A DNA stretch of 49,909 nt from Gemmatimonadota bacterium. GTDB taxonomy: Bacteria; Gemmatimonadota; Gemmatimonadetes; Gemmatimonadales; Gemmatimonadaceae. This document shows, piece after piece, positions 10,287-48,079 of this stretch. The DNA lies in the NCBI GenBank assembly GCA_027346425.1, contig DAIESF010000079.1:1-49909 (forward strand), written 5' to 3'. Every line of letters begins with the position of its first letter. Within the stretch, counting starts at the first letter, position 1. The notes under the pieces were generated by a model, which saw only the letters and a list, made by a program, of their open reading frames with translations, was not told the origin of the DNA and did no database searches. A program made the translations under genes and the position numbers.

Positions 10287-10331
10287 TTCTCGTCTTCTCG
10301 TCTTCTCGTCTTCTCGTCTTCTCGTCTTCTC
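10287..10331 (+). repeat. Octamer tandem array A, (TTCTCGTC) x5.6
   Basis: Five perfect units plus TTCTC, read directly from the sequence. The last 2 nt overlap the TGA stop (10330-10332) of the M1 peptidase gene. Lies about 120-160 nt upstream of the oxidoreductase start. Confidence 0.95.
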
Positions 10332-12402
10332 AAGAGATGGTGTTCGGCTTCACCCACGTGTTGTTCGTCCGATCCACGTCCGCCAGCACCTCCTTCGGGT
10401 CGAGCACCACCTGCGTCACGGTCTTCTTCGTGAAGAATCCATAGTTGAAGACAAGCTCATTCCTGCGCCAGACGTCGGCGGGGAGCTTCACCAATTCCTT
10501 GCTCCCGTCGTCGTAGGTGAGCTCGATCTGCAGCGGAAGGACGAGTCCGCCCTTGTTCTCGATCTTGATGCGGTAGTAGGTCTCGCCCGCGCGGCTCGCC
10601 CCTAACAATGAATCGCCGGGCTGCGTTTCCACGCTGGCGATCCCCTGGTCGTTGGCGTAGGTGGTGTAGAACCAGCCGCGCCAGAAGTGATTGAGCTGCT
10701 CGCCGGCGCCGTCCTCGATCGAGCGGAAGAAGTCGGCCGGCTGCGGGTGCTTGAACATCCACTTGTGCGAATACTCGCGGAACGCCTCGTCGAACAGCGA
10801 GTCGCCCAGCACCTGCTCGCGCAGCATGACGAGCCCGGCCGCCGGCTTGGAGTAGCCGTTGTTCCCGAACTGCGTCTGGATGTCGTTCGACTCCGTCATG
10901 AGCGGGACCTGCGCGTCCTGCTTCATGTAGCCGACGATGTTCTTCGCCGGCCCGCGTTGCGACGGATAGGCGGGGTCCCAGTCCTTCTCGGCGTAGTACT
11001 GCAGGAACGAGTTGATCCACTCGTCCATCCATGTCCACTTTCGCTCGTCCGAGGCCACGACCATCGGGAACCAGTTGTGCCCCACCTCGTGGATGGTGAC
11101 CGAGACGAGGGCACGGGCCAGCCCCGGCGAGACCTGGCCGTCGGGGGTCGGGCGCGCGCCGCAGAAGGCGATCATCGGGTACTCCATCCCGAAGACCGGG
11201 CCGTGGACGTTCACCGCCTTCGGATATGGTTACTCGAACGACATGCGCACGTAGGTCTTCATCGTCTGGGCGATCGCCTTGGTGGAGACCGAGTCCCAGA
11301 GCGGCATGGCATCGCGCGGATAGAGCGAGTGCAGCTCGATCGGCTTCTCGGTGGGGCGATAGCGAAAGCCCATCGCATCCCACACGTACGTCTTGCTCGA
11401 CACCCAGGCGAAGTCGCGCACGTTCTCGGCCTTGAAGCGCCAGGTGAGCGGCCCCGTGCCGGCCGGGCGCGATTCGGGCTTCATGACCTCGTCAGGCGCA
11501 ACGATGAAGACGGGCTTGTCGCTCGTCCACGCCTTCGCCAGGCGCTGCTGCTGCGTGGCGGTGAGCACCTGAGGCGCGTTGGTGAGGACGCCGGTGGCGT
11601 TGACGATGTGGTTGCGCGGGACGGTGAGCTCGACGTCGTAGTTGCCGAAGTTGAGATAGAACTCCCCCTGCCCGAGGAACTGGTCGGTGGCCCACCCGTT
11701 CACGTCGTCGTACACCGAGGCCCGCGGGAACCACTGGGCAAGCTCGTACAGCCACCCGTCCTTCACCAGCTCCTTGGCGCCGCGCCCGTTGCGCCCTCCC
11801 TCGGGGATGAGGTTGTGCCAGTCGATCTCGATGATGGCCTGCTGCCCGGTGGTGATAGGGGTCGCCAGGTGCACCTTCATCACCGTCCCGTTGATCACGT
11901 AGCGCGCATCCTTCCGTACCCCCTTGGCGTCCACCACCTGCACCCGCGAGAGCGTGTAGCCGCCGTCGAAGGCCTCGGGGGCGAGGAAACGCCGCGCCTG
12001 CTCGGGAATGCGTGACGGGAGCGCCTGCTGCACCAGCGCCGCGCGCGAATCGGGGCGGTCGATATTCTGGTCGAGCTGGAACCAGACGTAGGAGAGCTGG
12101 TCGGGCGAGTTGTTGTGGTAGGTCACGCGCTCCGACCCCGTCACCGACTGCCTGACCGTATCGAGCGTTGCCTTGATGGAGTAGTCCACGCGCTGCTGCC
12201 AGTATTTGGGGCCAGGCGACCCGGCGGCGTTGCGGTACTCGTTGGGGTCTGGCCACTCCTCGATGGCGCGGAACGACGACTGGTTGGTCTTCTTGTCCTT
12301 GGCGTTCACCCAGTTCTGGGCGCCAGCGACGTTGGTGGCGAGCGCCAACGACAAGAGGACGAGAAGACGAGAAGCCGAGAAGACGAGACTTCGGGGGGGC
12401 AT
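10330..12402 (-). pseudogene. M1-family zinc metallopeptidase with signal peptide, interrupted by one in-frame TAA (11230-11232)
   Basis: ORFs 11230..12411 and 10330..11214 share one frame: '...KTYVRMSFE*PYPKAVNVHGPVFGMEYPMIAF...'. The downstream part carries HEVGH-x18-E. The upstream part carries the signal peptide MPPRSLVFSASRLLVLLSLALATNVAGAQ. The ATG at 12402 is preferred over GTG at 12411. Confidence 0.8.
12350..12389 (-). repeat. Octamer array B (5 slightly degenerate units), coding
   Basis: The plus strand reads gacaagag gacgagaa gacgagaa gccgagaa gacgagac. On the gene's sense strand this encodes SLVFSASRLLVLL of the M1 signal peptide. Confidence 0.9.
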
Positions 12403-12491
12403 GGTGTGCACGGCTGAGGATGATGGGACTGCTACTTCAGTCTACCGCTCTGCTGCTGCGCTCTCCTGCTCCAACCTGCTCATTCCCCGAC

Positions 12492-13100
12492 TCACCCCTT
12501 GGGGAAGCGTTCGACGATCATCTTGAGGCCGGCGAGGACGATCACGATCGACAGCGCGGTCGCCCAGCGCCGGCGGGCCAGGCCGGCGACCTCGCATGCC
12601 AGCGTCCCGACCAGCAGGACACAGGCGACGATCGCCAGTTGCCCAATTTCCAGCCCCACGTTGAAAGCGAAGAGCGGGATCACGATGCTCTCTTCGGCGC
12701 CGAGTATCGCCCGCAGGAAGTTGGAGAATCCGAGCCCGTGGATAAGCCCGAAACACCCGGCAAGGATGTAAAGGAGTACATGGCGCTCCGGAGCGTACCC
12801 CTCGCCGGTTCGTTCGGAGCGGGCCCGCGCAATCATTGAATAGCCGGCCGTCACCACGATCGTGACCGGGATCAGGAACTCGATGGTCTGGGCATGGACC
12901 CGCACCAGCTGCAGCGTCGCCAGCGCCAGGGTGACCGAATGGCCGACCGTGAAGGCGGTGACGAGCCAGAGCAGGCGTCGCCAGTCGCGGAGCGCGTAGC
13001 CCGCGGTGAGCGCGACGATGAACAGGATATGGTCGTAGCCCCGGAGGTCGGCGATGTGTCCGATGCCGAGCCGGAAGTAGGTGACGAATTCGGAATTCAT
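12492..13100 (-). CDS. HupE/UreJ-family membrane protein (Ni/Co permease family)
   Basis: 'MNSEFVTYFRLGIGHIADLRGYDHILFIVALTAGY...TVGHSVTLALA...GLIHGLGFS' and six hydrophobic segments. Start set to the ATG at 13100. Confidence 0.75.
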   Translation of the reverse strand: MNSEFVTYFRLGIGHIADLRGYDHILFIVALTAGYALRDWRRLLWLVTAFTVGHSVTLALATLQLVRVHAQTIEFLIPVTIVVTAGYSMIARARSERTGEGYAPERHVLLYILAGCFGLIHGLGFSNFLRAILGAEESIVIPLFAFNVGLEIGQLAIVACVLLVGTLACEVAGLARRRWATALSIVIVLAGLKMIVERFPKG

Positions 13101-13329
13101 GGAGTGGTGCGACGCCGCGCCAAGTCGCTGCGGGTGCAACGTTGGTTGGGAGAAAGCTGCCCAAAGTGGACGCCGGGGACGACCCCTCGCGCGCAGTCCG
13201 CTGCTGGGGCGTGACGTGACGGCGGCGGGGGATGGCGAGTCGTCGGCGACCAATAAAGAAGCGTTAACACTCGCCGCACCCGATAGTCCAACGACCGTCC
13301 CCAGAGACGTGCCACCAGAGGTTCAACTC

Positions 13330-17124: not shown

Positions 17125-17134
17125 GCGGGTCGCC

Positions 17135-18424: not shown

Positions 18425-18626
18425 CCGCGGTCGCCCCCGCGTTGGGGGCGTGCCTCCGGTACAAGCTCGCCAGGCGCGCCGCAACGTCAAGCGCGGCGGG
18501 GTGGTGTGCTGGTCAGAGTGCTGTCCCGCGGCGATACTTCGCCGGTTGGCGAACGCCGTTCGCCGACGCGCTCGGAGAACGATCCCCCTGCGGCACGCGC
18601 GTAGCGCCACCCTCCTGTCCACACTC

Positions 18627-19601: not shown

Positions 19602-19604
19602 GCG

Positions 19605-21853: not shown

Positions 21854-21860
21854 GGCGCTC

Positions 21861-23198
21861 CTAGTCGCCGGCCGGCGCCGGGGCGATCGCGTGCCTGTGC
21901 GCCGTGCCGGGTGCTGTGGCGATCTGGCGCTTCAGGAGGTAGACCACGATGACGCCGAGGAAGAGATACAGCAGCGTGAAGAGGAGAAAGGGGACGATGA
22001 GCCCCGGCATCGGCGTCACCGCGTCGGCGGTGCGCAGCACTCCCTGCACGACCCACGGCTGTCGCCCCACCTCGGTCACGACCCATCCGGCTTCGGTGGC
22101 GATGAAACCCATCGGTGAGGCGAGGACGATCGCCCCCAGCAGCGTCCGTTGCAGCGCCAGCTCGCGCCGCCGCCAGCGGCACCAGAGCACCCCAAGCGCC
22201 ACCAGCGCCATGTACGACCCCAGGCCGACCATCACCTGGAAGCCGACGTGCACGATGGCCACCGGCGGCCAGTCGCTGCGCGGGACGCGGTCGAGCCCCT
22301 GCACTTCGGCGTTTGGGTCGGCGAAGGCGAGGATCGACAGCGCCTTCGGGACCTCGATCGCCCAGCGCGTCTCGGCCGCCGCCTCGTCGGGCCACCCCCC
22401 GACGCGTAGCGGCGCCCCGCGTTCGGTCGTGAACTGCCCTTCCATGGCCGCCAGCTTGGCCGGTTGCAGCCGCGCCACCGCCTTGGCGGCGATATCGCCC
22501 GACAGCGGCTGCAGCAGCGACGCCGGCACCGCGACCAGGAGGGCGATGCCTAACGCCTTGCGGTGGAAGGTGGCGTGCGGGGTGCGGCGCAGCAGCCAGG
22601 CGTGGATCCCGGCCACCGCGAACCCGGTCGCGGCGTAGGCAGCCAACGTCATGTGCAGCGTCTGCGGGAAGGCGGCGGGGGTCGTCATCGCCAGCAGGGG
22701 GTCGATGTCGGCAGGAACGCCATCTTTGAGCACGAAGCCCCGCGGCGCGTTCATCCACGCGTTGGCGATGACCACGAAGATCCCCGAGACGGCCCCGCTC
22801 AACGCCACCAGCACGCCCGCCCACAGGTGCGCACGCGGCGAGATCCGGTTCCACCCGTACAGGTAGACGCCGAGGAAGATCGCCTCGGTGAAGAAGGCGA
22901 ACCCCTCGAGCGAGAACGGCATCCCGATGATGGCGCCGGCAAACTTCATGAAGCCGGGCCACAGGAGCCCCAGTTCCAGCGACAGGACCGTCCCCGACAC
23001 CGCGCCAACCGCGAAGAGGATTGCCGTCCCCTTGGCCCAACGCTTGGCCAGGTCGAGGTAGATCGGCTCACCCGTGCGCAGGTGCCGCCACTCGGCCACC
23101 ACCATGAGTAACGGCATCCCGATCCCCACCATCGCGAAGATGATGTGGAAGGCGAGCGACATCGCCATCTGTGATCGGGCCGCCAACAAGTCGGGCAT
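21861..23198 (-). CDS. cydA: Cytochrome bd ubiquinol oxidase subunit I
   Basis: '[34 protein letters not shown]...[25 protein letters not shown]' are conserved CydA helices. 445 aa, so a short Q-loop type. Confidence 0.92.
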
Positions 23199-23203
23199 GG
23201 TGG

Positions 23204-23239
23204 TTCTCGTCTTCTCGTCTTCTCGTCTTCTCGTCTTCT
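23204..23239 (+). repeat. Octamer tandem array C, (TTCTCGTC) x4.5
   Basis: A perfect array fills most of the 47-bp gap between the amidohydrolase stop (23246) and the cydA ATG (23198). It ends 5 nt from that ATG. Confidence 0.95.
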
Positions 23240-23245
23240 AAGGAT

Positions 23246-24709
23246 CTACTTTCGATAGTCCAGCGCCGGTCCCGCCCGGTTAAGACGCGTGCGGTACACG
23301 AAGTCGGTGCCGCGCCGCTGGTCGAACTCGGCGCGCGCCTTGGGGAGGATCGTGGCGTCGGTGAAGAGATCGATCGCCGTGAGCGACATCGTCTTGGCCG
23401 CGACCATCATCCCCTTGGCACCGATCGGCGTGCCGCCAGCCGCAACTGCCTGCCACGAGTGCGCCGGTGTCCCCGGGACCCAGGTCGCCGCGCTGAGCGC
23501 CACCGTGGGGACCGCCCACGAGACGTCGCCCATGTCGGTCGAGGCGGGGTCGACCCCACCCTTCTCGAACGGGTGCACCCTGGCCGCGTCGTCGATGGGT
23601 GGGACGGGACGATCGAGCGACTTCTGCAGCTCGGTCGCGAAGGTCCGGTCTTCTGCCGAGTAGGTCACGCCGCCCACGCGCTCGAGGTTGCGCTGCTGCA
23701 GGCGCGCCAGGACTTCGTTGGGGAGGATGTTGTACACGGCGCCGATCGTCTCGTGGTCGACCGTCGTCCCCGTCCCCATGGCCGCTCCCTGCGCCGCCGC
23801 GAGGATCCGCTCCCAGATCTGGTCCAGCACGCGCATGTCGCCCTGACGGGCGTACATGAAGACCTCGGCGAAGTCGGGGACGACGTTAGGCGCCCGCCCC
23901 CCGTTGGTGATGACGTAGTGGATGCGCGTGTCCTGCGGGACGTGCTCGCGCATCATGTTCACCATGTGCGTCATCGCCTCGACGCCGTCGAGCGCCGAGC
24001 GCCCCTTGTCGGGGGCGGCGGCCGCATGGGCCGACTTGCCGTGGAAGCGGAATTTGGCAGAGATGTTGGCCAGCGTACTGTTGGCGTCGGCCACATTGCG
24101 GTCGCCCGGGTGCCAGGAGACCACTGCATCGACATCCTTGAAGAGCCCCGCGCGCACCATGAAGACCTTGCCGGAGCCCCCCTCTTCCGCCGGCGTTCCA
24201 TAGAAACGCAGCGTGCCGGGGATCTTGTTGGCCGCCATCCATTCCTTCACGGCGATGGCAGCGGCGGTGGAGGCTGTGCCAAAGAGGTGATGCCCGCATC
24301 CATGCCCGGCTCCGCTCTCGGCGACCGCCTTTTTGAACGGCGACGCCTCCTGCGAGAGCCCGGGAAGGGCGTCGAACTCGCCGATGATCGCGATTACCGG
24401 CTTGCCGCTCCCGTATGTCGCGGTGAAGGCGGTGGGGGCCCCGGCCACGCCGACGTCGAGGGTGAAGCCCGCCTGCGACAACTCCTGCTGGAGGAGCGCG
24501 CTCGACTTCACCTCCTGATAGCCGACTTCGGCAAAGCCCCAGATCTGTTTGGCGACGCCGGCGTAGTGATCGAAGCGCGCGTCGAGCGCGGCGAGAACGG
24601 CCTTGGACGGGTCACCCTGCTTGCCCTGGGCGCTCGACGAGGCGGGGAGGGCGACTACGCAGGCGCCGGCCAGCGCGAGCGAGAGGTGGGAACGACGAAA
24701 TGCGCGCAT
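23246..24709 (-). CDS. Secreted M20D-family amidohydrolase (AbgB/aminobenzoyl-glutamate-hydrolase-like)
   Basis: Signal '[18 protein letters not shown]'. '[21 protein letters not shown]...[17 protein letters not shown]...VVSWHPG' are M20D motifs. Confidence 0.85.
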
Positions 24710-26311: not shown

Positions 26312-26320
26312 GCGGTGCCA

Positions 26321-28569: not shown

Positions 28570-28688
28570 CTCCGGCCCCCTGCCCCCCCGTCCGCACTCC
28601 CCCAGCGAAATCCCGCCCCCGGGTAAACGCATTTCCAGTGCAGGGTGTCTGAAATACGACAGCAGTAAGCATCCGACGAACAGCCGTT

Positions 28689-28720
28689 GTCTCGTCTTCT
28701 CGTCTTCTCGTCCTCTCGGA
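28689..28720 (+). repeat. Octamer array D (gtctcgtc ttctcgtc ttctcgtc ctctcgga)
   Basis: Read directly from the sequence. It ends 4 nt before the blaI-like ATG (28725). Its edge variants match those of coding array B. Confidence 0.9.
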
Positions 28721-34221: not shown

Positions 34222-34225
34222 CCCC

Positions 34226-34814: not shown

Positions 34815-37421
34815 ATGTCCTGCTTCGTGCCGCTTCGCGCCGCCGCACTCCGTATCACCCTTCTGGGGACGCTCGCCATCGCGCTCTGCGCCGCGCCCGC
34901 CCGCGCGCAGGGGCCCAGCGTCGCACGCACCGAACATCTGGCGCCCCGCGCCGCAGCCGCGACAGCCGCCGCGACAGCCGCCGCGATACCTGGCGCGACC
35001 ACCATGAGCGCCCGGGCGGTCCGTGCCACCGTCCCCCCCGTGATTGACGGGCATGACGACGACCCTGCCTGGCAGGTAGCTCCTCCCATCGACGACTTCA
35101 AGCAATTCACCCCGGTCGAGGACGGTGACCCGTCGTTTCGCACCGAGGTGCGCGCCACCTACGACGACCGCAACCTCTACGTGGTCGTGAGGGCCTTCGA
35201 CCCGCATCCTGACAGCATCGTCTCGCTCCTGAGCCGGCGCGACGTGCGCACGAACTCCGACCAGCTCAAGATCATCATCGACGGTTATCTCGACCGGCGC
35301 ACGGCGATCCAGCTCATGCTCAACCCGGCCGGGGTCAAGCGCGACGCCTCGATCTACAGCGATTACGTCGAGGACATGAGCTGGGACGGGGTGTGGGATG
35401 GGGCGGCGGCGGTCGATTCGTTAGGGTGGGTGGCCGAGTTCCGCCTCCCATTCTCGCAGCTCCGCTTCAACGGGAGCACACCGACGTTTGGTTTCGGGGT
35501 CTGGCGCGACATCGCCAGGCGCAACGAGCGCGCGGCGTGGCCCGCCTTCCGCCAGTCGCGACAGGGGCTCGTCTCGCAGCTCGGAACGCTGGAGGGGATT
35601 ACCGGGATCCAGCGCGGGAGCCGCCTCGAGCTCCTCCCGTACACCGTCACCAAGAACGTGACCGAGGCAAACGCCGACGGGTGGCGCCACCCGCAGAAGG
35701 TGACGGCCGGGGTGGATCTGAAGTACGGAGTGACCCCCAACCTGACGCTCGACGCCACGGTCAATCCCGACTTCGGCCAGGTCGAGGTCGACCCGGCGAT
35801 CCTCAACCTGTCGGCGTTCGAGGTCCGCTTCGAGGAGCGGCGCCCCTTCTTTCAGGAGGGGGTCGGGCTCTTCAAGTGCGGCGGTCCGTGCGAGGGGGTT
35901 TTCTACACGCGCCGCATCGGGCGCACCCCGCAGCTGCGCACGTCGGAGCTTGACCCGTCGGGGACGACGATCCTTGGCGCCACCAAGCTCACCGGGCGCC
36001 TGCACAACGGGCTGGCCGTGGGACTCGTCGAGGCGATGACCGGGCGTGAAGTCGGGGTCGATGGCCAGACGGTGGAGCCGCAGACGAACTACCTCGTCGG
36101 GCGACTGGTGAAGGAGATGCGACAGGGGCGGTCGCAGCTGGGGACGATGGTCACCGCGACCAACCGCAACCTCGACGACTACTCGGCCAACTACCTGCGG
36201 CGCGATGCGTACAACCTCCTGTTGCAGGGGCTGCATCGCTTCGGGCGCGACCGGTGGGAGCTGATGGCGTACTCGGGGTTCAACCGCGTGAGCGGGTCGG
36301 AGCAGGCCATCGCCCTCACCCAGCTCAACAGCGTCCACTTTTACCAGCGCCCCGACCACGAGGAGCACTTCGACAGCACGCGCACGTCGTTAGGTGGCAA
36401 CGTCGTCGCCGCCTCGATCAGCAAGATCGGGGGCGCGGTGCGGTGGAACACCTATGTCCGTCGCGCCTCGGCCGGGCTCGAGCTCAACGACCTGGGGTTC
36501 GTTCCCACGGTGAACGACATCTCGGTCCGCAACGAGGCGTCGTGGCAGGCGCTGCGACCCGGGGCGTTCTACCGACGCTCGTTCAGCTTCATCTCCACCG
36601 AGAACCACTGGACCACCGGCGGGCTGCCGAGCGGGACGCGGGTCACCGCGCACAGCTCGTTCGAGCTCCTCAACAGCTGGGGGGTGGCGCTCACGTACAA
36701 CGTGAACGATTGGGGGGTGTCGCACTGCGTCGCCTGCGCCCGTGGGGGGCCGGCGGTGCGCCAGGGGCCCAAGCAGGAGCTGGGCTTGAACGTGAGCGGC
36801 GATCCGCGAAACGTGCTGGTCCCCAAGCTCGCGTTCTACGGGGGCGTGGGCGACGGGGGACGCTCGTATTCCCGCGGCGCTACCGCGGGGGGCGAGTTGC
36901 GAATCGCCTCCCGCTTCTCGATGGCGGTCGAGGCCGCGTACTCGGGGATCAACAACGACCAGCAGTGGATCGGGAACTATGGTGCGCTGCTCAGCGACAC
37001 CACGCACTTCACCTTCGCCCACCTCGACCAGACCACGTTAGGCATCACCACCCGCCTCAACTGGACCGCCTCGCCCAGGTTGTCGTTGCAGCTCTATGCG
37101 TCGCCGTTCGTCAGCACGGGCGACTTCCGCAACTGGCGCGAGCTGGGCGACCCGCGCGCCGAGCGCTACGAGGACCGCTACCGCCCGTATGGCGGGCAGT
37201 CCAACCCCGACGGCTTCAGCTACAAGCAGTTCAACTCCAATGCCGTGTTGCGCTGGGAGTATCGTCCGGGCTCGACGTTGTTCCTGGTCTGGCAGCAGGG
37301 GCGGTTGCAGAGCGACGTGAGCCGCGGGGCGTTCGACTTCTCCCGTGACTACCGCGACCTCTTCAGGGCGCATCCGGACAATACGTTGCTGGTGAAGGTG
37401 TCGTACTGGCTGAATCCGTAG
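34815..37421 (+). CDS. DUF5916 / CBM9-like domain outer-membrane protein
   Basis: Signal 'LLGTLAIALCAAPARAQG'. 'VIDGHDDDPAWQVAPPIDDFKQFTPVEDGDPSFRTEVRATYDDRNLYVVVRAFD' is the N-terminus of the CBM9-like/DUF5916 family. Long beta-rich C-terminus ending 'LLVKVSYWLNP'. Confidence 0.75.
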   Translation: MSCFVPLRAAALRITLLGTLAIALCAAPARAQGPSVARTEHLAPRAAAATAAATAAAIPGATTMSARAVRATVPPVIDGHDDDPAWQVAPPIDDFKQFTPVEDGDPSFRTEVRATYDDRNLYVVVRAFDPHPDSIVSLLSRRDVRTNSDQLKIIIDGYLDRRTAIQLMLNPAGVKRDASIYSDYVEDMSWDGVWDGAAAVDSLGWVAEFRLPFSQLRFNGSTPTFGFGVWRDIARRNERAAWPAFRQSRQGLVSQLGTLEGITGIQRGSRLELLPYTVTKNVTEANADGWRHPQKVTAGVDLKYGVTPNLTLDATVNPDFGQVEVDPAILNLSAFEVRFEERRPFFQEGVGLFKCGGPCEGVFYTRRIGRTPQLRTSELDPSGTTILGATKLTGRLHNGLAVGLVEAMTGREVGVDGQTVEPQTNYLVGRLVKEMRQGRSQLGTMVTATNRNLDDYSANYLRRDAYNLLLQGLHRFGRDRWELMAYSGFNRVSGSEQAIALTQLNSVHFYQRPDHEEHFDSTRTSLGGNVVAASISKIGGAVRWNTYVRRASAGLELNDLGFVPTVNDISVRNEASWQALRPGAFYRRSFSFISTENHWTTGGLPSGTRVTAHSSFELLNSWGVALTYNVNDWGVSHCVACARGGPAVRQGPKQELGLNVSGDPRNVLVPKLAFYGGVGDGGRSYSRGATAGGELRIASRFSMAVEAAYSGINNDQQWIGNYGALLSDTTHFTFAHLDQTTLGITTRLNWTASPRLSLQLYASPFVSTGDFRNWRELGDPRAERYEDRYRPYGGQSNPDGFSYKQFNSNAVLRWEYRPGSTLFLVWQQGRLQSDVSRGAFDFSRDYRDLFRAHPDNTLLVKVSYWLNP

Positions 37422-37430
37422 GTTCTAGAA

Positions 37431-37478
37431 GACGAGAAGACGAGAAGACGAGAGGACGAGAGGACGAGAGGACGAGGC
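37431..37478 (-). repeat. Octamer array E: GACGAGAA x2, GACGAGAG x3, GACGAGGC (plus-strand reading)
   Basis: Fills most of the 67-bp gap between convergent stops (37421 and 37489). Preceded by the palindrome TTCTAGAA (37423-37430). Confidence 0.95.
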
Positions 37479-37488
37479 GAACCCTTCG

Positions 37489-38973
37489 TCAGCTGCGCTC
37501 GGCTATGCCGGGCCACTTGTCCGTCCACGGTCTGGCGCGCTCCAACTGGCCGGCAATCCTGAACAGCGTGCCGTCGTCGCCGAATCTCGCCGCCAGCTGC
37601 ACGCCGATGGGGAGGTTGTCGCGGTTCCAGTGCAGCGGGACACTCATGGCGGGTTGGCCGGTGGCGTTGAAGAGTGGGGGGTAGGGGATGAAGTCGAAGA
37701 CGGTCGCGGCGGCCTGGGCGACGGCGCCGAGGCGGCGCATCAACCCCCCGGCTCGCAGGGCGCCCATGACCTTCAGGATGCGCGCCTCGGCAGGCTTGGG
37801 TTGCAGCGCGCCGTGCTTCACCGGCGGGGCGCCGAGGGTAGGGGTGAGGAAGAGGTCGCACTCCTGGAAGAAGGCGCCGAGGGTGCGCCCGCTGCGCTGG
37901 AGGTAGCGCTGGGCGCTGGCGTAGTCCCCCGCGCTCAGCGAGCCGCCGAGCATCGAGAGCCCCCATGTGGCCAACTCCACGTCGCGCCGCGTCGCTGCGC
38001 GCCCCAGTCGTCGTTCGGCGTCGCGGAGGTCGGCGACCACCTCGCCGCAGACGATGGTGACGAAGGCCCGGTTGAACTCCTCGCGGTCGATCACCGGGGC
38101 GCGCTCCTGCACGTGGTGGCCTAACGATTCGAGGAGCCTGGCGGCGTCGCGCACGGCCTCCGAGCAGTCCGGGTGCGTCCCGTGTCCCAGCATCGGTGCA
38201 TCGGTGAAGGCAATGCGGAGCTTGCCGGGGTCGGCGGTGACCTCGTCGAGGAAGGGGCGGAGGCGATGCGGTGCGGCGTAGGGGGCGCCGGCGTCCTCGC
38301 CGCTGATGGCGTCGAGCATCGCTGCCGAGTCACGCACCGAGCGCGTGAGGACCCCCTCGGTCGCCGCCCCTCCCCAGTGCTCGCCGTCGTCGGGCCCGGT
38401 GGGGACGAGACCGCGTGACGGCTTGAAGCCGAAGAGCCCGCAACACGACGCCGGGATGCGGATCGACCCCCCACCGTCGCCGCCGGCGGCGACCGTCACC
38501 ATCCCGCTCGCCACAGCCTCGGCCGAGCCACCGCTCGACCCACCGACCGTGCGTTCGAGATTCCACGGGTTGCAGGTGATCCCCTTGGCCTTGGGTTCGG
38601 TGTACGGGACGAGCCCAAACTCGGGAGTGTTGGTCTTGCCGAGCGTGATGAGGCCGGCGCGCCGATAGCGCTGCATCAGTTCGGAGTCGTGGTCCGGCCT
38701 CCATCCGGCGTAGAGCGCCGATCCCGATTCCAGCGGCTCAGCGGCGTAGCAGGTGAGCAGATCCTTGATGAGGAAGGGGACGCCGGCGAAGGGGGCGTTG
38801 GGATCGGCGAGCGGGGCGTCGGCGAGGCGGCGCGCCTGCTCGAACATGGGGTAGATGACGGCGTTGAGCTTCGGGTTGAGGCGCTCGATGCGGGCGATGG
38901 CGGCGTCGACGGCCTCCCGCGCGGAGATCTGACGGGAATGGATCTGCTGCGCGAGTTCCAGGGAGTCGGACAT
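37489..38973 (-). CDS. Amidase (amidase-signature family)
   Basis: '[16 protein letters not shown]' AS-signature and a Ser-cisSer-Lys family layout. 494 aa. Confidence 0.9.
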
Positions 38974-38989
38974 GGATACTCAGGGTCTG

Positions 38990-39017
38990 GACGGGAGTCG
39001 GGAGACGGGCGTCAGGA
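38990..39017 (+). repeat. Heptamer array (GACGGGA GTCGGGA GACGGGC GTCAGGA) in the divergent promoter gap
   Basis: 7-bp periodicity. Shares the exact 16-mer GGACGGGAGTCGGGAG with 26327-26342. GGGAGTCGG also recurs at 38961-38969, just inside the amidase gene. Confidence 0.7.
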
Positions 39018-39107
39018 ACGGTCGCTGGCGGGTGGTGGTATTCCTCTGCAATCTCCTGATGTTCTGAGCTGTCGGTAAGACGGGGGGACTCTCTCCGGAG
39101 GACTTCG

Positions 39108-40328: not shown

Positions 40329-40417
40329 GCATGCGCCCCAAGTTCCATCGGTAACCAGCACTCGCCGGCGGCGCGCGCGGCATCTCCCCTCATGCCGCGA
40401 GGAGCAACGGGCCGCGT

Positions 40418-40473
40418 GGTCCCCGCGGGGCAGCCGCGGACCGACTGGAGATTATGTCCGATCTGACATAATC
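40418..40473 (+). other. Two adjacent stem-loops in a 317-bp non-coding gap
   Basis: GC stem GGT(CC)CCGCGG / CCGCGGACC (40418-40442, loop GGCAG). Then an AT-rich perfect 9-bp stem GATTATGTC / GACATAATC with a 6-nt loop (40450-40473), flanked by CCGCGG on both sides. Confidence 0.6.
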
Positions 40474-40535
40474 CGCGGTTCATCTCGCGCACTGCTTCCA
40501 CTGCCCCCCATTCCCCCCACGGCTCCTCGCTGCTG

Positions 40536-40634
40536 TCACTGCCGCCACGGTCCCCACGGTCCCCACGGTCCCCACTGTCCCAACTGTCCCAACTGTCCCA
40601 ACTGTCTCCGCTGCCCCCGCTGCCCCCGCTGCTC
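40536..40634 (-). repeat. Compound 9-bp tandem array (about 11 units in three blocks)
   Basis: Plus strand: tcactgccg, ccacggtcc x3, ccactgtcc, caactgtcc x2, caactgtct, ccgctgccc x2, ccgctgctc. The minus strand carries G3-G5 runs every 9 nt. The array starts 11 nt after the M20 stop (40646). Confidence 0.9.
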
Positions 40635-40645
40635 TGGACGACCCT

Positions 40646-42118
40646 CTATTGCGCCACCGTCGACGACGCCAGCGCCTTGGTCAGCCGGTAGAGAAACTCT
40701 TGCCCCTCGAAGTACGAGCGTACGCCCATCCGCTCGTCCCGCCCGTGTGCTCGGGCGTCGACGGACGGGTCGCTGAACAGCCCTGAGACGCCGTAGGCCG
40801 GGATCCCTAACGCGCGGAAGAAGCGAGAGTCCGTCGCTCCGGTGCTCATTGTCGGGATCACCGGGATGTTTCCCCACAGCTCCCTGGTGATCCGCTCGAC
40901 CGGTCCCATGACTTCGCGGGCGAGCGCGGTGGCCGGGGTCGACGGACGCTGCGTGCGGATCACGACGTGCACCGTCGTGTCGGCGATCACCTTCTCGAAG
41001 GTCGCCTTCACTTCCTCGGCGTTCGACGTCGGGTAGATGCGGCAGTTGATGTTGGCCTCGGCGAGCTGCGGGAGGGCATTGCTGGCGTGGCCGCCGCTGA
41101 GCCCGGTCGCCACGCAGCTGGTGCGGAGCATCGAGTTGTAGCGCGGATCCCTGGTCACCACCGCGATCGCCGCCGCATCGTTCGAGTTCGCGACCAGCGC
41201 CTTCATCGCCTTCCCCATCTCCGGCGTTTCGAGGTTGGCGGTCTGGGCAAAGAAGGCGCGCGTCACCTCGTTCAGCTGTACCGGGAACTTGAAGCGTCCC
41301 ACCTTCGACAGCGCGTCGGCGAGCGAGGTGATGGCGTTGTCGTCGCGCGGGACCGAGGAGTGGCCACCACGGTTGGTGACGCGCAGCGTGAAGTTGGTGG
41401 TGATCTTCTCCGCCGCCTGCACGGAATTGAAGAGATGCTTCCCGTCACGCAGTGTTCCGCCGCCCCCCTCGTTCACCACCAGCGCCGCGTCCACAAGGTC
41501 GCGGTGGCTCTTGGTAAGCCAATCGACGCCGTTGAACGGTCCGCTCTCCTCGTCGGCGGTGAGCGCGATGATGATGTCGCGATCGGGGACGAACCCCTCC
41601 TGCTTCATGCGGAAGACGTTGGCGACGAAGATCGAGGCCATCGCCTTGTCGTCGGCAGTTCCGCGCCCGTAGTAGTAGCCGTCGCGCTCGGTAAAGACGA
41701 ACGGGTCGAGGTCGGGAGACCAGTCGGCCTTGAGCGCCTCGACCACGTCGATGTGCGCGAGGAGGAGCAGGGGCTTGCCCGCGTTAGGTCCGCCCTTGCC
41801 CCGGATGCGGGCGACGACGTTGTGCTTCTTGGGCTGCGGGCCGCCCACGAAGATGTCGGACTCGGGGATCCCCGCCTCGCGGAAGCGCTTCGCCATTGCC
41901 TGCGCGGCGGCGGTGATGTCGCCGGTCTCGACCCCGGTGTTGATCTCGACCAGCTCCTTGTAGATGTCGCGGGCGAGCTGCTGGTTGGGCGTCAGCTGGC
42001 CGGGAGTGTAGATGGGAGACTTCTGCTGAGCGCCGGCGGGGAGCGCCACTCCCGACGTCGCGGCGAGCGCGGTGCTCGCCGCGAGCGCCGCGAAGGAGAG
42101 ACGATTCATTGGGGGCAT
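40646..42118 (-). CDS. Secreted M20/M25/M40-family metallopeptidase
   Basis: Start 'MPPMNRLSFAALAASTALAATSGVALPAGAQQ'. 'LLLLAHIDVVEA...GRGTADDKAMASIFVA...ALTADEESG' are M20 metal-ligand motifs. The upstream 240 codons of the ORF only translate the repeat and the kinase 3' region. Confidence 0.85.
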   Translation of the reverse strand: MPPMNRLSFAALAASTALAATSGVALPAGAQQKSPIYTPGQLTPNQQLARDIYKELVEINTGVETGDITAAAQAMAKRFREAGIPESDIFVGGPQPKKHNVVARIRGKGGPNAGKPLLLLAHIDVVEALKADWSPDLDPFVFTERDGYYYGRGTADDKAMASIFVANVFRMKQEGFVPDRDIIIALTADEESGPFNGVDWLTKSHRDLVDAALVVNEGGGGTLRDGKHLFNSVQAAEKITTNFTLRVTNRGGHSSVPRDDNAITSLADALSKVGRFKFPVQLNEVTRAFFAQTANLETPEMGKAMKALVANSNDAAAIAVVTRDPRYNSMLRTSCVATGLSGGHASNALPQLAEANINCRIYPTSNAEEVKATFEKVIADTTVHVVIRTQRPSTPATALAREVMGPVERITRELWGNIPVIPTMSTGATDSRFFRALGIPAYGVSGLFSDPSVDARAHGRDERMGVRSYFEGQEFLYRLTKALASSTVAQ

Positions 42119-42127
42119 GGTGCGGAG

Positions 42128-42200
42128 GTGGTTCTGCAGTGGTTCTGCGGTGGTCCTGCGGTGGTTCTGCGGTGGTTCTGCGGTGGTTCGGATGTGGTGG
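42128..42200 (-). repeat. 11-bp tandem array (GTGGTTCTGCG on the plus strand, 6.6 units)
   Basis: gtggttctgca gtggttctgcg gtggtcctgcg gtggttctgcg gtggttctgcg gtggttcggat gtggtgg. Begins 10 nt upstream of the M20 ATG (42118), within the 145-bp gap after the kinase stop. Confidence 0.95.
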
Positions 42201-42263
42201 ACGCGTATGCCGGATCGGGCGATCGCGCGGAACGTCGAGGGCACGGTGGGGGAGCGGCGCCGA

Positions 42264-45200: not shown

Positions 45201-45425
45201 GACGTGCGGATGCTGGAGCGCCGCGGCGAGGAGGACCTCGCGCTTGAACCGCTCGACGGAGATCCCGGCGAGCAACTCGGGCGCCAGCACCTTGACCACC
45301 ACTCGGCGGTTGAGCGCGCGTTCGGTCGCGACGAAGGTCCGCGACATCCCGCCGCCCCCCAGCTCGCGCTCCAGCGTGTAGGCGCTCCCGAGCGCCGCCT
45401 GCAGTTCGGTCTGCAACTCGCTCAC
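42264..45425 (-). CDS. Ser/Thr protein kinase with transmembrane segments and a long periplasmic/TPR C-terminal region
   Basis: 'HRDIKPDNVLL', 'DFGIAK' and 'GTPAYMAPEQ' are Hanks-type motifs. Two or more hydrophobic helices follow. TPR-like repeats run to the C-terminus. GTG start at 45425. Confidence 0.9.
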   Translation of the reverse strand: MSELQTELQAALGSAYTLERELGGGGMSRTFVATERALNRRVVVKVLAPELLAGISVERFKREVLLAAALQHPHVVPVLSTGDANGLPWFTMPYVEGDSLRQRLSRGPLSLGEITAILRDVARALEFAHAHGVVHRDIKPDNVLLAGSSATVTDFGIAKALTAARTMAPGGATLTVAGTAIGTPAYMAPEQAAGDQALDHRADLYAFAAMAYELLAGRPPFVADSQARLIAAHFSETPRDVRELRPDTPPALADVIMRCLAKEAVDRPAGASELVRVLDSVSSTGGGVVPEALRGPQMRLGRALAVWGGATALVGVTAWAATRTIGLPDWAFPGAIGVMLAGLPAVLGTWYVQRTSHRVLVSTPTLTPGGSIVPQGTLATIAVKAAPHVSWRRTWMGGAIAAGSFATFIVAFMVLRALGIGPMGSLRGAGAFGDRETLVVADFRPPNGDSTLGATVAEAIRTDLAQSKNLSVMTRAALREALRLMGRSEAQAVEFDAAREIATREGAKAVLDGAIDKLGPSYVVSARLVASLDGSELATFRETAKDDAELIAALGRLSHDVRQKVGESLRDIRQAQSLERVTTSSLPALRKYVEASDVLSSLGDAERGQGLLREAVALDSTFAMAWRRLASSWVGSGRGREEQLRAIMNAYAHRDRLSENERLLTEGSYWTYGPDPDVNRAIAAYEALVARDSSNQAALNNVSTLYGRVGDTKKGIATLERATRVPRPFGGAFTNLVQAYVSIGDTTGARRTQQEFKRRLPSNATHWAGEAAIAAAKGELDSASAIAERAYRDARSGAQRDQSSYYAGTIAFTRGKPMEGLRWLALGNQAALQGGGPKTPELMAGLDSTFVTALFHEDRKRARVLYDRAIARIPLESLDPSERPWDYIGEVAMHLGDASMARAALAGARRDSAAAGHPAGRDAWFRALIARTEGRYKDAIAEYQQSRRAYYRSERYTNYVIGDAFDLDGQADSALVYYERFAEHPLSDLETESNIIAGTFKRIGELYDAKGDTAKAEHYYQRFVDLWKDAEPELQPKVRKARERIAELRRGKG

Positions 45426-45625
45426 GTCGGACCGGCTCCCCCGTTCAGGCCGGCGGAACGTAGGGGGCGGACACGCGGGACGCCAGCACGCGCGTCACCC
45501 CCATCCCCCCGACACGCCCCCCTGCGCCGCCCCGCGCCCCGCCCCGCTTCCCCCTGCCGATTCCAACCCGTAGCCTCCAGCACCAACGCACCGCTGCCCC
45601 ACGCTCTCCCCCCACCCGGGCGCCC

Positions 45626-48079
45626 ATGCCCCCACGTCTTCTCTTCTTCTCGTCTTCTCGTCTTCTGACCCTGTCGCTCGCGCTGCTAGCCGCGACGCCA
45701 GCGACGCCCAAGGCGCAGCAATTCCTGCGACCGAGCGACATCAACGCCCTCCCCAGCAAGCCGGCCGACGCCCGCATCCCCTACGGCCCCGACTCGCTCC
45801 AGTTCGGAGACCTCCGCCTGCCTAACGGGAAGGGACCGTTCGCCGTCGCCATCGTGATCCATGGCGGCTGCTGGGTGCACGCCTATGCCGCGGCCCAGAA
45901 CTCGGCCGCGCTCGCCGATGCGCTGCGCGACGCCGGCATCGCCACCTGGAACATCGAGTACCGCCGGCGCGACAACCCGGGGGGCGGGTGGCCCGGAACC
46001 TTCCTCGACGTCGCCGCCGCCGCCGACTCGCTGCGTTCGCTCGCCAAGCGCTACCCACTCGACCTCACCCGCGTGGTGGCGGTCGGTCACTCCGCGGGAG
46101 GACAGCTTGGGCTCTGGCTCGCCGCCCGTCGCAAGATCCCCTCCAGCTCCCCACTCGCCGCGAACGATCCGCTCCCCCTCGCCGGCGTCGTCGCACTCGG
46201 CGCCCCCGGCGACCTGCGCGACTTCAACAGCTATGGCGACGCGATGTGCGGCGAGGGGACGATCCCCAAGCTCCTCGGCGGAAGCTACGACCAGGTCCCC
46301 GATCGCTGGCGCGACGCCTCCCCGAGTTCGTTTCTCCCGTTAGGCGTTCCGCAGGTGATGCTGGCCGGCGACGCCGATCGCATCATGCCCCGCAAGAACC
46401 TCGAGGCGTGGGCCACTGCCGCTCGCGCCACAGGTGACAGGGTGGACGTGGTCGTCGTCCCCAATGCCGCCCACCACGAGGTAATGTCACCACGGAGCGT
46501 CACCTGGCCCTACGTGCGGGATGCGGTGTTGCGCACCGCGCAGGTGACGTTGCCGAGCGCACAATCCAGTGAGCGCTGGTGGAACGATGTCCAGCGTCTC
46601 AGCGCCGACTCCATGAAAGGGCGCCAGACCGGAAGTCGCGAACACCGCCAGGCCGCCGAGTACACCGCCGCCGCTTTCAAGGATGCCGGGCTCAAGCCGG
46701 CCGGGACGAAGGGGTACTTCCAGCCGGTGCACTTCATCTCGCGCACCATCGACGAGTCGAAGTCGTCGCTCACCCTCATTCGCGACGGCAGGGAGGAGAC
46801 GCTGGTATTGGGCGAGGACGCCAGCTTCATCCTGCGCGCCCCGCTTGCCGAGTCGGTCGAGGCCCCGGTGGTCTTCGCGGGCTACGGCTTGCACCTGCCG
46901 GAGTACGGGGTGGACGACCTGGCCGGGATCGATGTGAAGGGAAAGATCGTCGCCTACATTACCACTATGCCCAAGGGGGTCCCCGGCCCCGTCGTCTCGC
47001 ACTCGCGCGCCCAGGCGTGGGAAACGCTGCGTGCCGCCGGGGCGGTGGGGGTGATCACCTTCGCCGGGTCGCCGGCGAACGACGGCGCCTTCATCAGGGG
47101 GAGCGCCAACCGGCTTGCACCGCAGATGACGCTGGAGGAACCATCGCTCGATTCGCAGCGCGGTAACCGTCTCGCCGTCAGCTTCAACGTGGCCAGAGCC
47201 GCCAAGCTCTTCGCCGGCGCCGCCGAACAATTCGCCGCCATCGCCGCCCGCGCCGACTCGGGGCTCCCGCTCCCGCACTTCGCCCTTCCGGTTCGCCTGC
47301 GCTCGCATGTCTCCCTCGTCACCAGCACGGTCACTTCCGACAACGTCGTCGGACTCCTCCCCGGAAGCGATCCCACACTGCGCAACGAGTATGTCGTCAT
47401 CTCCGCCCACCTCGACCACGTCGGGATCGGTCGCGTGGTGAACGGCGACAGCATCTACAACGGCGCAATGGACAATGCTTCCGGGACCGCCCTCCTCATG
47501 GAGGTCGCCCGCCGGCTGCACGAAGGGAAGGTGAAGCCGCGCCGCTCCCTCCTCTTTACTGCGGTCACCGCCGAGGAGAAGGGGCTGCTTGGCTCTCGCT
47601 ACTTCGCCAATCACCCCACCGTCCCGGCGTCTCGCATCGTCGCCGACCTCAATACCGACATGTTCATGCCCATCGTCCCCTTCACGATGGTGATGGTGAA
47701 CGGGCTCGAGGAGTCGAACCTGGCCGACGACGCGCGCAAGGCCGGGGAGATGATCGGGGTGAAGGTCGTGAGCGACCCCGAGCCCGAGGAGAACCGCTTC
47801 ATCCGCAGCGACCAATACTCGTTCATCCTGCGCGGCATCCCGTCGCTCTCCTTCAAGGTGGGCTTCGCCCTCAACACGCCGGAGCACGAGGCGGTGAAGG
47901 AGTTCAGGGCGAAGCGCTATCACTTCCCGCGGGACGACGTGAGCCAGCATGTGGACCAGGCGACTGCCGAGGGATTCACGCGGTACTATGTCGAGGTGGT
48001 GAAGCGGGTCGCCGACCGCGACGTGAGAGCGCGCTGGAACGACGACTCGTTCTTCAAGCGACTGGCTCGCAAACGGTAA
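45626..48079 (+). CDS. Secreted fusion protein: alpha/beta-hydrolase (esterase-like) + PA domain + M28 aminopeptidase
   Basis: Signal MPPRLLFFSSSRLLTLSLALLAATPATPKAQQ. 'IVIHGGCW...VVAVGHSAGGQLGLW' is a Ser-hydrolase nucleophile elbow. 'VISAHLDHVG...NGAMDNASGTALLMEVA...FTAVTAEEKGLLGSRYF' are M28 zinc ligands. Confidence 0.85.
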   Translation: MPPRLLFFSSSRLLTLSLALLAATPATPKAQQFLRPSDINALPSKPADARIPYGPDSLQFGDLRLPNGKGPFAVAIVIHGGCWVHAYAAAQNSAALADALRDAGIATWNIEYRRRDNPGGGWPGTFLDVAAAADSLRSLAKRYPLDLTRVVAVGHSAGGQLGLWLAARRKIPSSSPLAANDPLPLAGVVALGAPGDLRDFNSYGDAMCGEGTIPKLLGGSYDQVPDRWRDASPSSFLPLGVPQVMLAGDADRIMPRKNLEAWATAARATGDRVDVVVVPNAAHHEVMSPRSVTWPYVRDAVLRTAQVTLPSAQSSERWWNDVQRLSADSMKGRQTGSREHRQAAEYTAAAFKDAGLKPAGTKGYFQPVHFISRTIDESKSSLTLIRDGREETLVLGEDASFILRAPLAESVEAPVVFAGYGLHLPEYGVDDLAGIDVKGKIVAYITTMPKGVPGPVVSHSRAQAWETLRAAGAVGVITFAGSPANDGAFIRGSANRLAPQMTLEEPSLDSQRGNRLAVSFNVARAAKLFAGAAEQFAAIAARADSGLPLPHFALPVRLRSHVSLVTSTVTSDNVVGLLPGSDPTLRNEYVVISAHLDHVGIGRVVNGDSIYNGAMDNASGTALLMEVARRLHEGKVKPRRSLLFTAVTAEEKGLLGSRYFANHPTVPASRIVADLNTDMFMPIVPFTMVMVNGLEESNLADDARKAGEMIGVKVVSDPEPEENRFIRSDQYSFILRGIPSLSFKVGFALNTPEHEAVKEFRAKRYHFPRDDVSQHVDQATAEGFTRYYVEVVKRVADRDVRARWNDDSFFKRLARKR
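45631..45670 (+). repeat. Octamer array F (cccacgtc ttctcttc ttctcgtc ttctcgtc ttctgacc), coding
   Basis: Lies in codons 3-15 of the hydrolase-M28 gene and encodes RLLFFSSSRLLT. Confidence 0.9.

Follow-up and report, generated by a model that had tools for sequence, protein, structure and literature searches.

Dispersed families of 7–8-nt repeats have been reported for decades in cyanobacteria, Xanthomonas, Burkholderia and Beggiatoaceae, with both their function and the manner of their spread unsolved. The present analysis extends the phenomenon to the Gemmatimonadota: a 49,909-nucleotide stretch of DNA from a member of the Gemmatimonadaceae (contig DAIESF010000079.1 of assembly GCA_027346425.1; hereafter the window) contains six tandem arrays of the octanucleotide TTCTCGTC, which are members of a family of long simple-sequence repeats that is specific to one clade of uncultured Gemmatimonadaceae, spreads through their genomes and is of the short tandemly repeated repetitive (STRR) type.

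Among the systems already described, the GGGAATC/GGGGA(C/T)T repeats of Xanthomonas and Nostoc (Rehm et al. 2015, PMC4692102), here termed GGGNATC repeats, are dispersed, non-coding and typically four units long; at conserved sites, related strains differ in unit number, some of the repeats form inverted pairs, they are under-represented between divergent genes, and they show no link to mobile elements or surface genes (PMC4692102). Their purine-rich strand is the non-coding strand just upstream of open reading frames (ORFs) and the coding strand just after or overlapping stop codons, and G-quadruplex formation was proposed as the rationale of the repeats (PMC4692102). The TAACTGA repeats of marine Beggiatoaceae (MacGregor 2015, PMC4679880) comprise 169 sets of 2–6 copies each in one genome, mostly in forward orientation and a few nucleotides upstream of starts at which Shine-Dalgarno (SD) sequences are rare; the genes behind them share no function, S1, Csp or CsrA were proposed to mediate a role in translation, and no spreading mechanism was evident (PMC4679880). 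The STRR sequences of cyanobacteria are 7-bp tandem units at many intergenic sites of one lineage, with hairpins formed at, for example, hupS-hupL; roles in transcript stability or translational coupling have been proposed for them, and they are not known to have a function. Genome surveys record 5–11-nt repeats, heptamers above all, as abundant in scattered lineages, and the unit number of a heptamer in the 5' untranslated region (UTR) of Haemophilus influenzae hmw1A/hmw2A can grade expression (PMC8262952, PMC12721329).

The octamer resembles the GGGNATC repeats in its dispersal, its non-coding bias, its usual length of about four units, its polarity relative to ORFs, its scarcity between divergent genes, its partial occurrence as inverted pairs, its strain-dependent unit number at conserved sites and its lack of a link to mobile elements or surface genes, and differs in having an 8-nt rather than a 7-nt unit, a Gemmatimonadaceae host, and translated copies within signal peptides and an aminoacyl-tRNA synthetase loop. 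Because its purine strand, GACGAGAA, has isolated G residues only, whereas a G-quadruplex needs four or more tracts of at least 3 G, the octamer cannot form such a structure; that it nevertheless obeys the same polarity as the G-rich repeats argues for a more general cause of that polarity. With the TAACTGA repeats it shares an occurrence as dispersed sets upstream of SD-poor starts of genes without a common function; however, TAACTGA carries stop codons, whereas the octamer has none in any frame and is in places translated, and TAACTGA is described mainly upstream of starts, whereas about 55% of octamer 3' ends adjoin stops, often with terminator hairpins. With the STRR sequences the likeness lies in short, hairpin-forming tandem units at many intergenic sites of one lineage, and the difference in unit length, sequence and phylum.

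The resemblance to other classes of repeat is less close. A pyrimidine-rich CTCTT repeat can encode the hydrophobic part of the signal peptide in the opa genes of Neisseria; however, repeats of the hmw and opa kind are single-locus, high-frequency switches on surface proteins, whereas the octamer is genome-wide, has housekeeping neighbours and shows little variation. The REP/BIME/REPIN families and the palindromic elements of Rickettsia are, like the octamer arrays, lineage-specific and extragenic, number hundreds per genome, favour 3' ends and convergent regions and often form inverted pairs that fold into hairpins, and the Rickettsia elements also insert in frame into genes. By way of contrast, where a REP-type unit is an imperfect palindrome of 20–40 nt, the octamer unit is no palindrome, its arrays are tandem, of variable length and without conserved flanks or target duplications, and its inverted pairs (13 of them close) are built from tandem arrays around variable loops rather than from palindromic units; no RAYT-type gene turned up, although no search was aimed at one. 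A remnant of a miniature inverted-repeat transposable element or insertion sequence would have a conserved body with terminal inverted repeats and a target-site duplication; neither such a body nor a duplication was found. What was found, namely a head-to-tail 8-nt unit, many loci in one lineage, a strand-ruled bias towards ORF ends and variation between strains, places the octamer with the STRR, GGGNATC and TAACTGA repeats. An earlier note on this DNA, which knew of no described element with such a unit, is not supported on this point, the class being described; the unit itself appears in no relevant paper found, a literature search for it having returned only primers and siRNAs, and no description of such repeats in Gemmatimonadota was found in the literature search. 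What is new here is a unit that forms no G-quadruplex, a purine-first rule for hairpins, turnover of the unit at orthologous sites, and insertion into coding sequence.

The six arrays of the window, all recovered by Tandem Repeats Finder (TRF) at 3.6–6.2 units and 87–100% matches, are as follows.

Array A, 10287..10331, minus strand: TRF 5.6 units, 100% match; the mRNA reads TGA-(GAAGACGA)5.6.
Array B, 12350..12389, minus strand: TRF 12350-12388, 4.9 units; pyrimidine strand in the mRNA.
Array C, 23204..23239, minus strand: TRF 4.5 units; between an M20 peptidase stop and cydA.
Array D, 28689..28720, plus strand: TRF 28690-28718, 3.6 units; pyrimidine strand in the mRNA.
Array E, 37427..37478, minus strand: TRF 37427-37476, 6.2 units; between convergent genes.
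Array F, 45631..45670, plus strand: TRF 45635-45666, 4.0 units; pyrimidine strand in the mRNA.

The earlier note had proposed six arrays of one 8-bp unit within 50 kb, and both TRF and a two-unit TTCTCGTC probe confirmed this: with up to two mismatches permitted, the probe gave 19 matches in the window, every one within the six arrays, against a chance expectation of 0.06 (100 dinucleotide-preserving shuffles of the window). The positions given there held for the six arrays save that array E starts about 4 nt earlier, at 37427, and the edge variants described (gTCTCGTC openings, and CTCTYG or TTCT closings) are directly legible in the sequence. Array C recurs in five other, independent assemblies and array D in eight, so that the arrays are no artefact of assembly; nor, as the note already held, are they a CRISPR, in which repeats of 23–47 nt alternate with unique spacers of similar length: the 8-nt units are directly adjacent with no spacers, and a scan of ten neighbouring proteins turned up no cas-like domains. 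A pyrimidine-rich octamer of 50% GC is conspicuous because the window is 63–74% GC. Seven of its eight bases are pyrimidines, which makes it strand-asymmetric. Read in all six frames the unit contains neither start nor stop codons, and it cannot pair with itself and lacks dyad symmetry.

That the arrays are copies of one dispersed family and not six slippage events, as had also been suggested, was borne out by a genome scan for three perfect TTCTCGTC units in one genome per GTDB species: among the matches listed there were at least 83 in at least 11 Gemmatimonadota metagenome-assembled genomes (MAGs), with at least 15 loci in single MAGs, together with 17 further matches at single loci in unrelated phyla. 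Array density was 1 per 8.3 kb in the window, and in the fetched loci a further array was found for every 17 kb, from which a few hundred arrays per genome can be extrapolated. The window proteins match Gemmatimonadaceae MAGs, and because the orthologous regions of two relatives (L105 and L106, 86–87% protein identity) are devoid of such arrays, the family is confined to a narrow clade. The phage contigs searched for arrays gave no matches, and a phage vector is thus not indicated. Long single (TTCTCGTC)n arrays of 100–250 nt were also seen in a Deltaproteobacteria MAG, Photobacterium damselae, Syntrophobacter and Prevotellaceae (L008 28-274; L035 1532-1637; L039 3086-3208; L045 4973-5209); some of these arrays in unrelated bacteria are flanked by other 7-mer arrays, and they appear to be isolated loci that form no families.

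The anatomy of the family was established with 123–126 arrays drawn from the window and the MAG loci, genes being predicted by an in-house codon-bias gene caller. In the relatives, array length had its mode at 32–36 nt (about four units) and its maximum at about 80 nt. Predicted coding sequence, which makes up 85% of the total, held only 4/126 arrays (p about 1e-93); the earlier proposition that arrays lie at gene boundaries is supported, and the further one that none lies within a gene fails for arrays B and F, which lie inside ORFs and are translated. Array boundaries were found in register at both ends, 92/113 starting at unit phases 0–2, as (TT)CTCGTC after a C-rich flank, and 87/113 closing with ...CGTC-TTCT, a preference that fits copies of a single family. 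Beyond the C-rich bias on the 5' side and a weak RA(M) bias on the 3' side, the flanks contained no conserved body and no target duplication.

A marked polarity relative to genes was also apparent. The TTCT (3') end lay at a median of 7 nt from a coding-sequence boundary and the other end at about 85–90 nt, and the 3' end was the nearer to a gene in 67 arrays compared with the 5' end in 12 (p = 2e-10), a result that was unchanged when three non-Gemmatimonadota loci (L085, L095 and L098) were removed. In 79/107 cases the 3' end was within 15 nt of a coding-sequence boundary (30 sense starts, 49 antisense stops), and stop codons accounted for 58/107 (~55%) of the boundaries adjoining array 3' ends. 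Arrays on the start side thus furnish the mRNA with a pyrimidine leader, (UUCUCGUC)n, and those on the stop side with a purine trailer, (GACGAGAA)n, where the array's first two bases, preceded by a T, often complete the stop codon. Arrays were enriched between convergent genes, 31% of such intergenic regions having one compared with 15% of tandem and 12% of divergent regions (p = 0.004). Of the roles suggested earlier, that of a pyrimidine-rich leader or trailer fitted these data best.

Genes preceded by an array differed sharply from other genes. An SD-like tetramer was present in 0/25 of them compared with 102/297 other genes, the median minimum free energy of the initiation region (-50 to +30) was -7.2 kcal/mol compared with -22.5, and the unpaired probability of that region was 0.675 compared with 0.48 (p = 1e-10). 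The 5' flanks of leader arrays were C-rich. In the window, array D exemplifies such a class I 5' leader: a gene for a BlaI/Penicillinase_R repressor opens with its ATG (28725) 4–6 nt beyond the array, with no SD-like tetramer between the two. Upstream of array D by about 30 nt, and hence some 65 nt ahead of the blaI ATG, there is a palindrome, TGTCTGAAATACGACA (28646-28661); to judge from its sequence it is plausibly a candidate BlaI-type operator, in which case array D would stand between operator/promoter and start codon. A possible Bacteroidetes-like -7 promoter motif (TAnnTTT) was noticed by eye 10–17 nt upstream of some leader arrays, at a few loci only.

Array C lies between two genes and presents its purine strand in the mRNA, the minus strand reading TAG-ATCCTT-AGAA(GACGAGAA)4-CCACC-ATG from the M20 peptidase stop at 23246-23248. 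Its distance to the first cydA ATG (23198) is 5 nt, and to the conserved start ATGGCGATG (23168) it is 35 nt. Either of two starts is possible for cydA (23166-23198, minus strand), and because orthologs at 86–87% identity are annotated from the second (ATGGCGATGTCG, MAMS...), the array may be 35 nt and not 5 nt before the real start.

Two further roles were considered and set aside. That all arrays act as terminator arms was ruled out for leaders, whose 5' flanks were less structured than shuffled controls, and a Rho-loading (Rho-utilisation, or rut) role for C-rich, unstructured pyrimidine arrays was rejected since they are placed in leaders, where terminating early would do harm, and are less common behind stop codons, where it would do none; antisense silencing of a rut-like kind is possible as a side effect.

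Arrays following stop codons are by way of contrast frequently associated with hairpins. Array A, a class II 3' trailer with the purine strand in the mRNA, begins within the TGA stop (10330-10332) of the M1 peptidase C-terminal ORF on the minus strand and fills the space from that stop codon to a terminator hairpin, which a terminator scan also scores:

Intrinsic terminator after array A, 10254..10286, minus strand: TGGCGCCGCC-GTT-GGCGGCGCCA, then GTTTTTTGAC; 10-bp stem with 9 GC pairs, and a T6 tail.

Array E occupies a 67-nt gap between convergent genes. On the plus strand it follows the stop of a DUF5916 protein (37419-37421) as TAG-GTTC-TAGAAGACGAG..., and on the minus strand it is a pyrimidine array after the stop of an amidase (37489-37491) and a small hairpin:

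Small hairpin CGAAGGGTTCG, 37478..37488, minus strand: from the amidase stop to the 5' end of array E; a weak 4-bp stem, read from the sequence.

A strong GC hairpin or an inverted arm was seen in the 55 nt that follow approximately half of the 43 post-stop arrays (by eye, not formally counted), and in a shuffle test of their 45-nt flanks 11–30% were significantly structured. On the far side of the hairpin there is often a CTCG(TCTTC) with which the CGAG of the array pairs. An inverted partner motif lay within 120 nt on the 5' side of 31/103 arrays and on the 3' side of only 1/103; close inverted pairs of the octamer were arranged as purine arm, loop and pyrimidine arm in 13/13 cases; and inverted pairs of tandem arrays of any unit, sought in 197 loci, comprised 22 that were purine-first, 5 of balanced composition and none that was pyrimidine-first. 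The earlier statement that the element has no dyad symmetry, true of the unit, accordingly fails for the arrays, which in relatives are often inverted pairs forming long hairpins and which in array A abut a terminator hairpin. A composite of this order reads alike on both strands, and the purine-first rule, combined with the compactness of the intergenic regions, would bring the TTCT end to face the neighbouring coding sequence whether the array is a trailer after a stop or a leader before a start. The persistence of the purine-first order, whatever the unit, suggests a cause for the orientation at starts and stops.

Complementary pairs of leader and trailer arrays at the two ends of one gene or operon were observed in the window (B to A, D to E), in L040, in L049 and its ortholog L064, and in L084. 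Circularisation of the mRNA, or a cassette composed of a leader array and a complementary trailer, was however dropped as a general rule, such pairs being found in 6/32 runs, not clearly above the expectation from array density.

Comparisons at orthologous sites showed the arrays to be long-lived and their unit to be replaceable. After the M1 peptidase stop, the relative L104 carries a 45-bp hairpin in which four purine units and seven pyrimidine units are joined by a 14-nt loop, and at this same site five other lineages have, directly after the stop, inverted arrays of five different 7–8-mers around a short loop:

L107 and L109 (L107 2932-3037): arms TAGACGG / CCGTCCA, M1 peptidase 3' site.
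L111, 4032-4106: arms AGTACCG / GTACTCG, M1 peptidase 3' site.
L113, 3392-3516: arms AGTGCTT / GCACTAA, M1 peptidase 3' site.
L110, 6134-6208: arms AGTTCCG / GAACTCG, M1 peptidase 3' site.
L134, 4255-4336: arms GAGAGCGC / CGTTCTCG, M1 peptidase 3' site.

Some of these units recur elsewhere in the same contig or lineage. Since sister lineages carry different 7–8-mers at one orthologous site, the unit must turn over and must be copied between loci. Within 15 kb of L110 there are, moreover, no fewer than three distinct unit families.

Along a series of site C from 100% to 86% CydA identity there were, in turn, four purine units; five units, of which three were a GAGG variant; four units overlapping the stop; a purine arm, 60-nt spacer and pyrimidine arm; and a pyrimidine arm only. 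The change from 4 to 5 units there is seen in L002. Site D is identical in 8/9 assemblies from different samples, has one unit more in L190, the most diverged strain, and is empty in L195, while array F has the same length in P0121, the one further strain with a record. At 89% DNA identity, two species keep three arrays at the same sites with changed unit number and T/C variants, and changes of unit number at the species level were recorded at sites A, B and C and between L037 and L054. These single-site comparisons show the arrays drifting slowly, by slippage and point mutation, with replacement of the unit between lineages.

The few arrays within coding sequence are of particular relevance to the question of copying. 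Array B spans approximately codons 5–18 of an M1-type peptidase (signal peptide MPPRSLVFSASRLLVLLSLALA... / MPPRSLVFSASRLLVLL...), its C-rich 5' flank, typical of the family, reading ATGCCCCCCCGAAG; array F spans approximately codons 4–14 of an esterase/M28 peptidase fusion (signal peptide MPPRLLFFSSSRLLTLSLALLAA... / MPPRLLFFSSSRLLTL...). Because three 8-nt units make 24 nt, every frame of an array is a cyclic permutation of FSSSRLLV, and the opposite strand translates as DEKTRRRE; it is plausible, from the predicted translations, that arrays B and F encode the N-terminal part of signal peptides. Array B recurs, in position and in frame, in the M1 peptidase ortholog of L104 (87% identity), and the orthologs of L105-L108 have ordinary signal peptides unrelated to the array. 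In MAG_MBR_H125.88, four purine-strand units lie in frame within isoleucyl-tRNA synthetase (IleRS), and the same array is present in a species at 89% identity (L068 1646-1684; L197 ~4640-4675). The loop concerned precedes an LLVWTTTPWTL motif and is hypervariable across the Gemmatimonadaceae. A unit found genome-wide cannot arise there by chance, and this array must therefore have been copied in from elsewhere.

Some peculiarities of gene calls were noted at these same genes. Other Gemmatimonadaceae IleRS proteins have unrelated inserts in the array loop that resemble translated repeats (e.g. LAVGGGRLAVDGGRLAEGG); in L197 a (GACGGGG)3 tract at 5800-5830, in a second variable IleRS loop, coincides exactly with a split of the gene call (621 + 462 aa); and many IleRS database entries of this group are truncated or flagged 'partial'. 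Repeat arrays may lie behind frameshift errors or contig breaks in these MAGs, and may more generally break short-read assemblies and leave the MAGs of this group with gene calls that are cut short or divided. In four orthologs the M1 peptidase that lies between arrays B and A is encoded by a single 690-aa ORF, and in the window it is split by a TAA (11230-11232, minus strand) in place of a conserved Tyr codon (SFE*PYPKAV compared with SFEYPYPKAV), which points to either a pseudogene or a sequencing error.

Arrays survive in leaders and trailers, in the first codons of genes that encode secreted proteins and in variable loops of proteins. On the interpretation preferred here, this lineage-wide STRR-type family is probably, although by no means securely, a cis-acting module of adjustable length that operates at the level of RNA and transcription, as both leader and terminator arm. 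With the pyrimidine strand in the mRNA, an array would constitute nearly the whole leader of a gene that has no SD sequence and would keep the initiation region single-stranded in a 68% GC genome, possibly as a standby site or S1-type platform. Where the mRNA instead carries the purine strand, the array would fill the space between stop codon and terminator hairpin and could form an extended stem with a pyrimidine arm beyond that hairpin. Purine arm, loop and pyrimidine arm would be the only order that gives a nascent RNA that is pyrimidine-rich 3' of the hairpin, as in a bidirectional intrinsic terminator, and the pyrimidine arm might supply the weak pyrimidine-RNA:DNA hybrid that an intrinsic terminator needs. 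Unit number drifts by slippage between diverged strains, and the unit would be copied between loci; these roles as leader or standby module and as terminator arm, like the copying itself, are inferred.

A number of considerations weigh against that interpretation. Transcript ends, ribosome binding and termination are all deduced from the DNA sequence; start codons, which come from the codon-bias gene caller, are approximate; and the three non-Gemmatimonadota loci named above are wrongly included in the counts of register, coding share, leader SD motifs and folding, flank structure, inverted partner motifs, close octamer pairs, UTR composition, intergenic arrangement and density, the polarity alone having been recomputed. 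The low structure of the leaders is partly a consequence, by construction, of array composition, although it is also what the presence of an array physically brings about in a 68% GC genome. No hairpins were detected in the 5' flanks of leader arrays (median z ~+0.4 to +1.0 in three flank contexts), so terminator arms miss class I and two functions are needed. Function alone fails, moreover, to explain one exact 8-mer, because any pyrimidine-rich spacer would serve. Lastly, array-free UTRs of the same genomes share a weak polarity (44% purines before starts, 53% after stops), and orientation could for that reason reflect mere tolerance. This last observation also speaks for a rival account, possible though rather doubtful, according to which the arrays are selfish or neutral repeat DNA produced by mutational copying, and their positions and orientations are simply those tolerated by purifying selection, which would exclude, for instance, purine-rich SD-like runs from leaders and insertions that damage promoters or terminator stems. 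The occupation of permissive coding sites (signal peptides and the IleRS loop), the want of start or stop codons in any frame, which makes the unit easily tolerated, and the lack of a common function of neighbouring genes are all consistent with neutrality, as are the decay of array edges by T-to-C changes, the loss of a single site within the clade (site D in L195) and the published studies of analogous repeats, in which no function was found. Neutral arrays would not, however, be expected to be kept at orthologous sites across species in spite of diverged flanking non-coding DNA, and a purine-first rule that is absolute (22 compared with 0) across unrelated units needs an opposite order that is strongly harmful; that array-preceded genes have no SD sequence also indicates an array at least compatible with efficient initiation.

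The exactness of the 8-mer, which is uniform genome-wide although any pyrimidine-rich spacer would be unstructured, is better accommodated if the arrays are binding sites for a lineage-specific RNA-binding, DNA-binding or nucleoid protein, part of a post-transcriptional or architectural network with which the unit co-evolves; arrays of typically about four units, and different units at the same site in sister lineages, as expected of co-evolving specificity, point the same way, and the same idea was advanced for the TAACTGA repeats, with S1, Csp and CsrA as candidates. Binding of this kind is nonetheless judged unlikely: no candidate protein was identified, mRNAs carry either strand, single unit copies outside arrays are not clearly enriched (17 rotations compared with 6.7 expected from mononucleotide composition, mostly codon-like TCGTCTTC), and the 9-mer and 11-mer arrays of the window occupy the same positions, which favours composition over one sequence. 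Phase variation, either by frameshift switching (B, F) or by a resetting of promoter or ribosome-binding-site spacing (C, D), gains something from a unit length that is no multiple of three, from two arrays at the 5' coding ends of secreted proteins, as with the CTCTT repeats of Neisseria opa genes, and from the differences in unit number between strains at C and D. Against it, the near-invariance of array D is broken only in the most diverged strain, array F has the same length in P0121, array B keeps its frame at 87% identity, no out-of-frame alleles of B or F were seen (in P0121 for F and L104 for B only), most family arrays are outside coding sequence, and arrays of only 4–6 units of 8 bp are expected to slip rarely. 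With unit number differing only between diverged strains, and with housekeeping or metabolic neighbours (cydA, blaI, amidase, peptidases), among which no association with surface, host-interaction or restriction-modification genes was found, phase variation is unsupported and must be considered very improbable; the hypermutable contingency tracts proposed earlier are hence not upheld. A final, decidedly speculative proposal concerns origin, namely that a dedicated activity working from a sequence template writes or moves the arrays, each Gemmatimonadota lineage having its own 7–8-nt template. Candidates might be a telomerase-like reverse transcriptase or primase-polymerase that appends copies of a short template at DNA breaks or hairpins, or an HUH-type nuclease mobilising repeat hairpins; templated writing would explain one unit at hundreds of permissive sites, IleRS included, its fixed register and the site-specific replacement of units. 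The turnover of the unit between sister lineages and its entry into coding sequence make the question of repeat copying concrete and testable.

The genes adjoining the arrays of the window, as identified by Pfam, encode M1, M20 and M28 peptidases, cydA, blaI/blaR, an amidase and a DUF5916 protein, which have no common function. For the proteins next to arrays A and E, no identical entry is on record. An Rfam covariance-model scan of the whole window gave 0 matches at gathering score, no tRNA or tmRNA genes were found in a scan of the window and no rRNA genes in any fetched locus, and sigma-70 promoter matches were no more frequent than in shuffled sequence.

Two other repeats in the window occupy comparable positions. 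At 40537-40640, between convergent genes, lies a compound array of three 9-mers, (CACGGTCCC)3 (AACTGTCCC)3 (CGCTGCCCC)2.8, with GGG(G) runs on the complementary strand; its pyrimidine-strand 3' end is a few nucleotides from the stop of a minus-strand gene (40646), the same polarity as in the octamer family. At 42118-42198 an 11-mer array, GGTGGTTCTGC x5.7 on the plus strand and CGCAGAACCAC as the minus-strand gene reads it, comes to within 9 nt of the ATG (42118) with which MPPMNRLSFAALA... begins, on its upstream side. It is a further G-poor leader array, of a different unit, and ATGCCCCC again follows it. In L176, a distant relative (55% identity anchor), arrays of GGGGGACT / CCCCCAGT were seen at 2665-2703 and 5042-5090, the unit of which is one base from CCCCAGT, the classical STRR heptamer of cyanobacteria.

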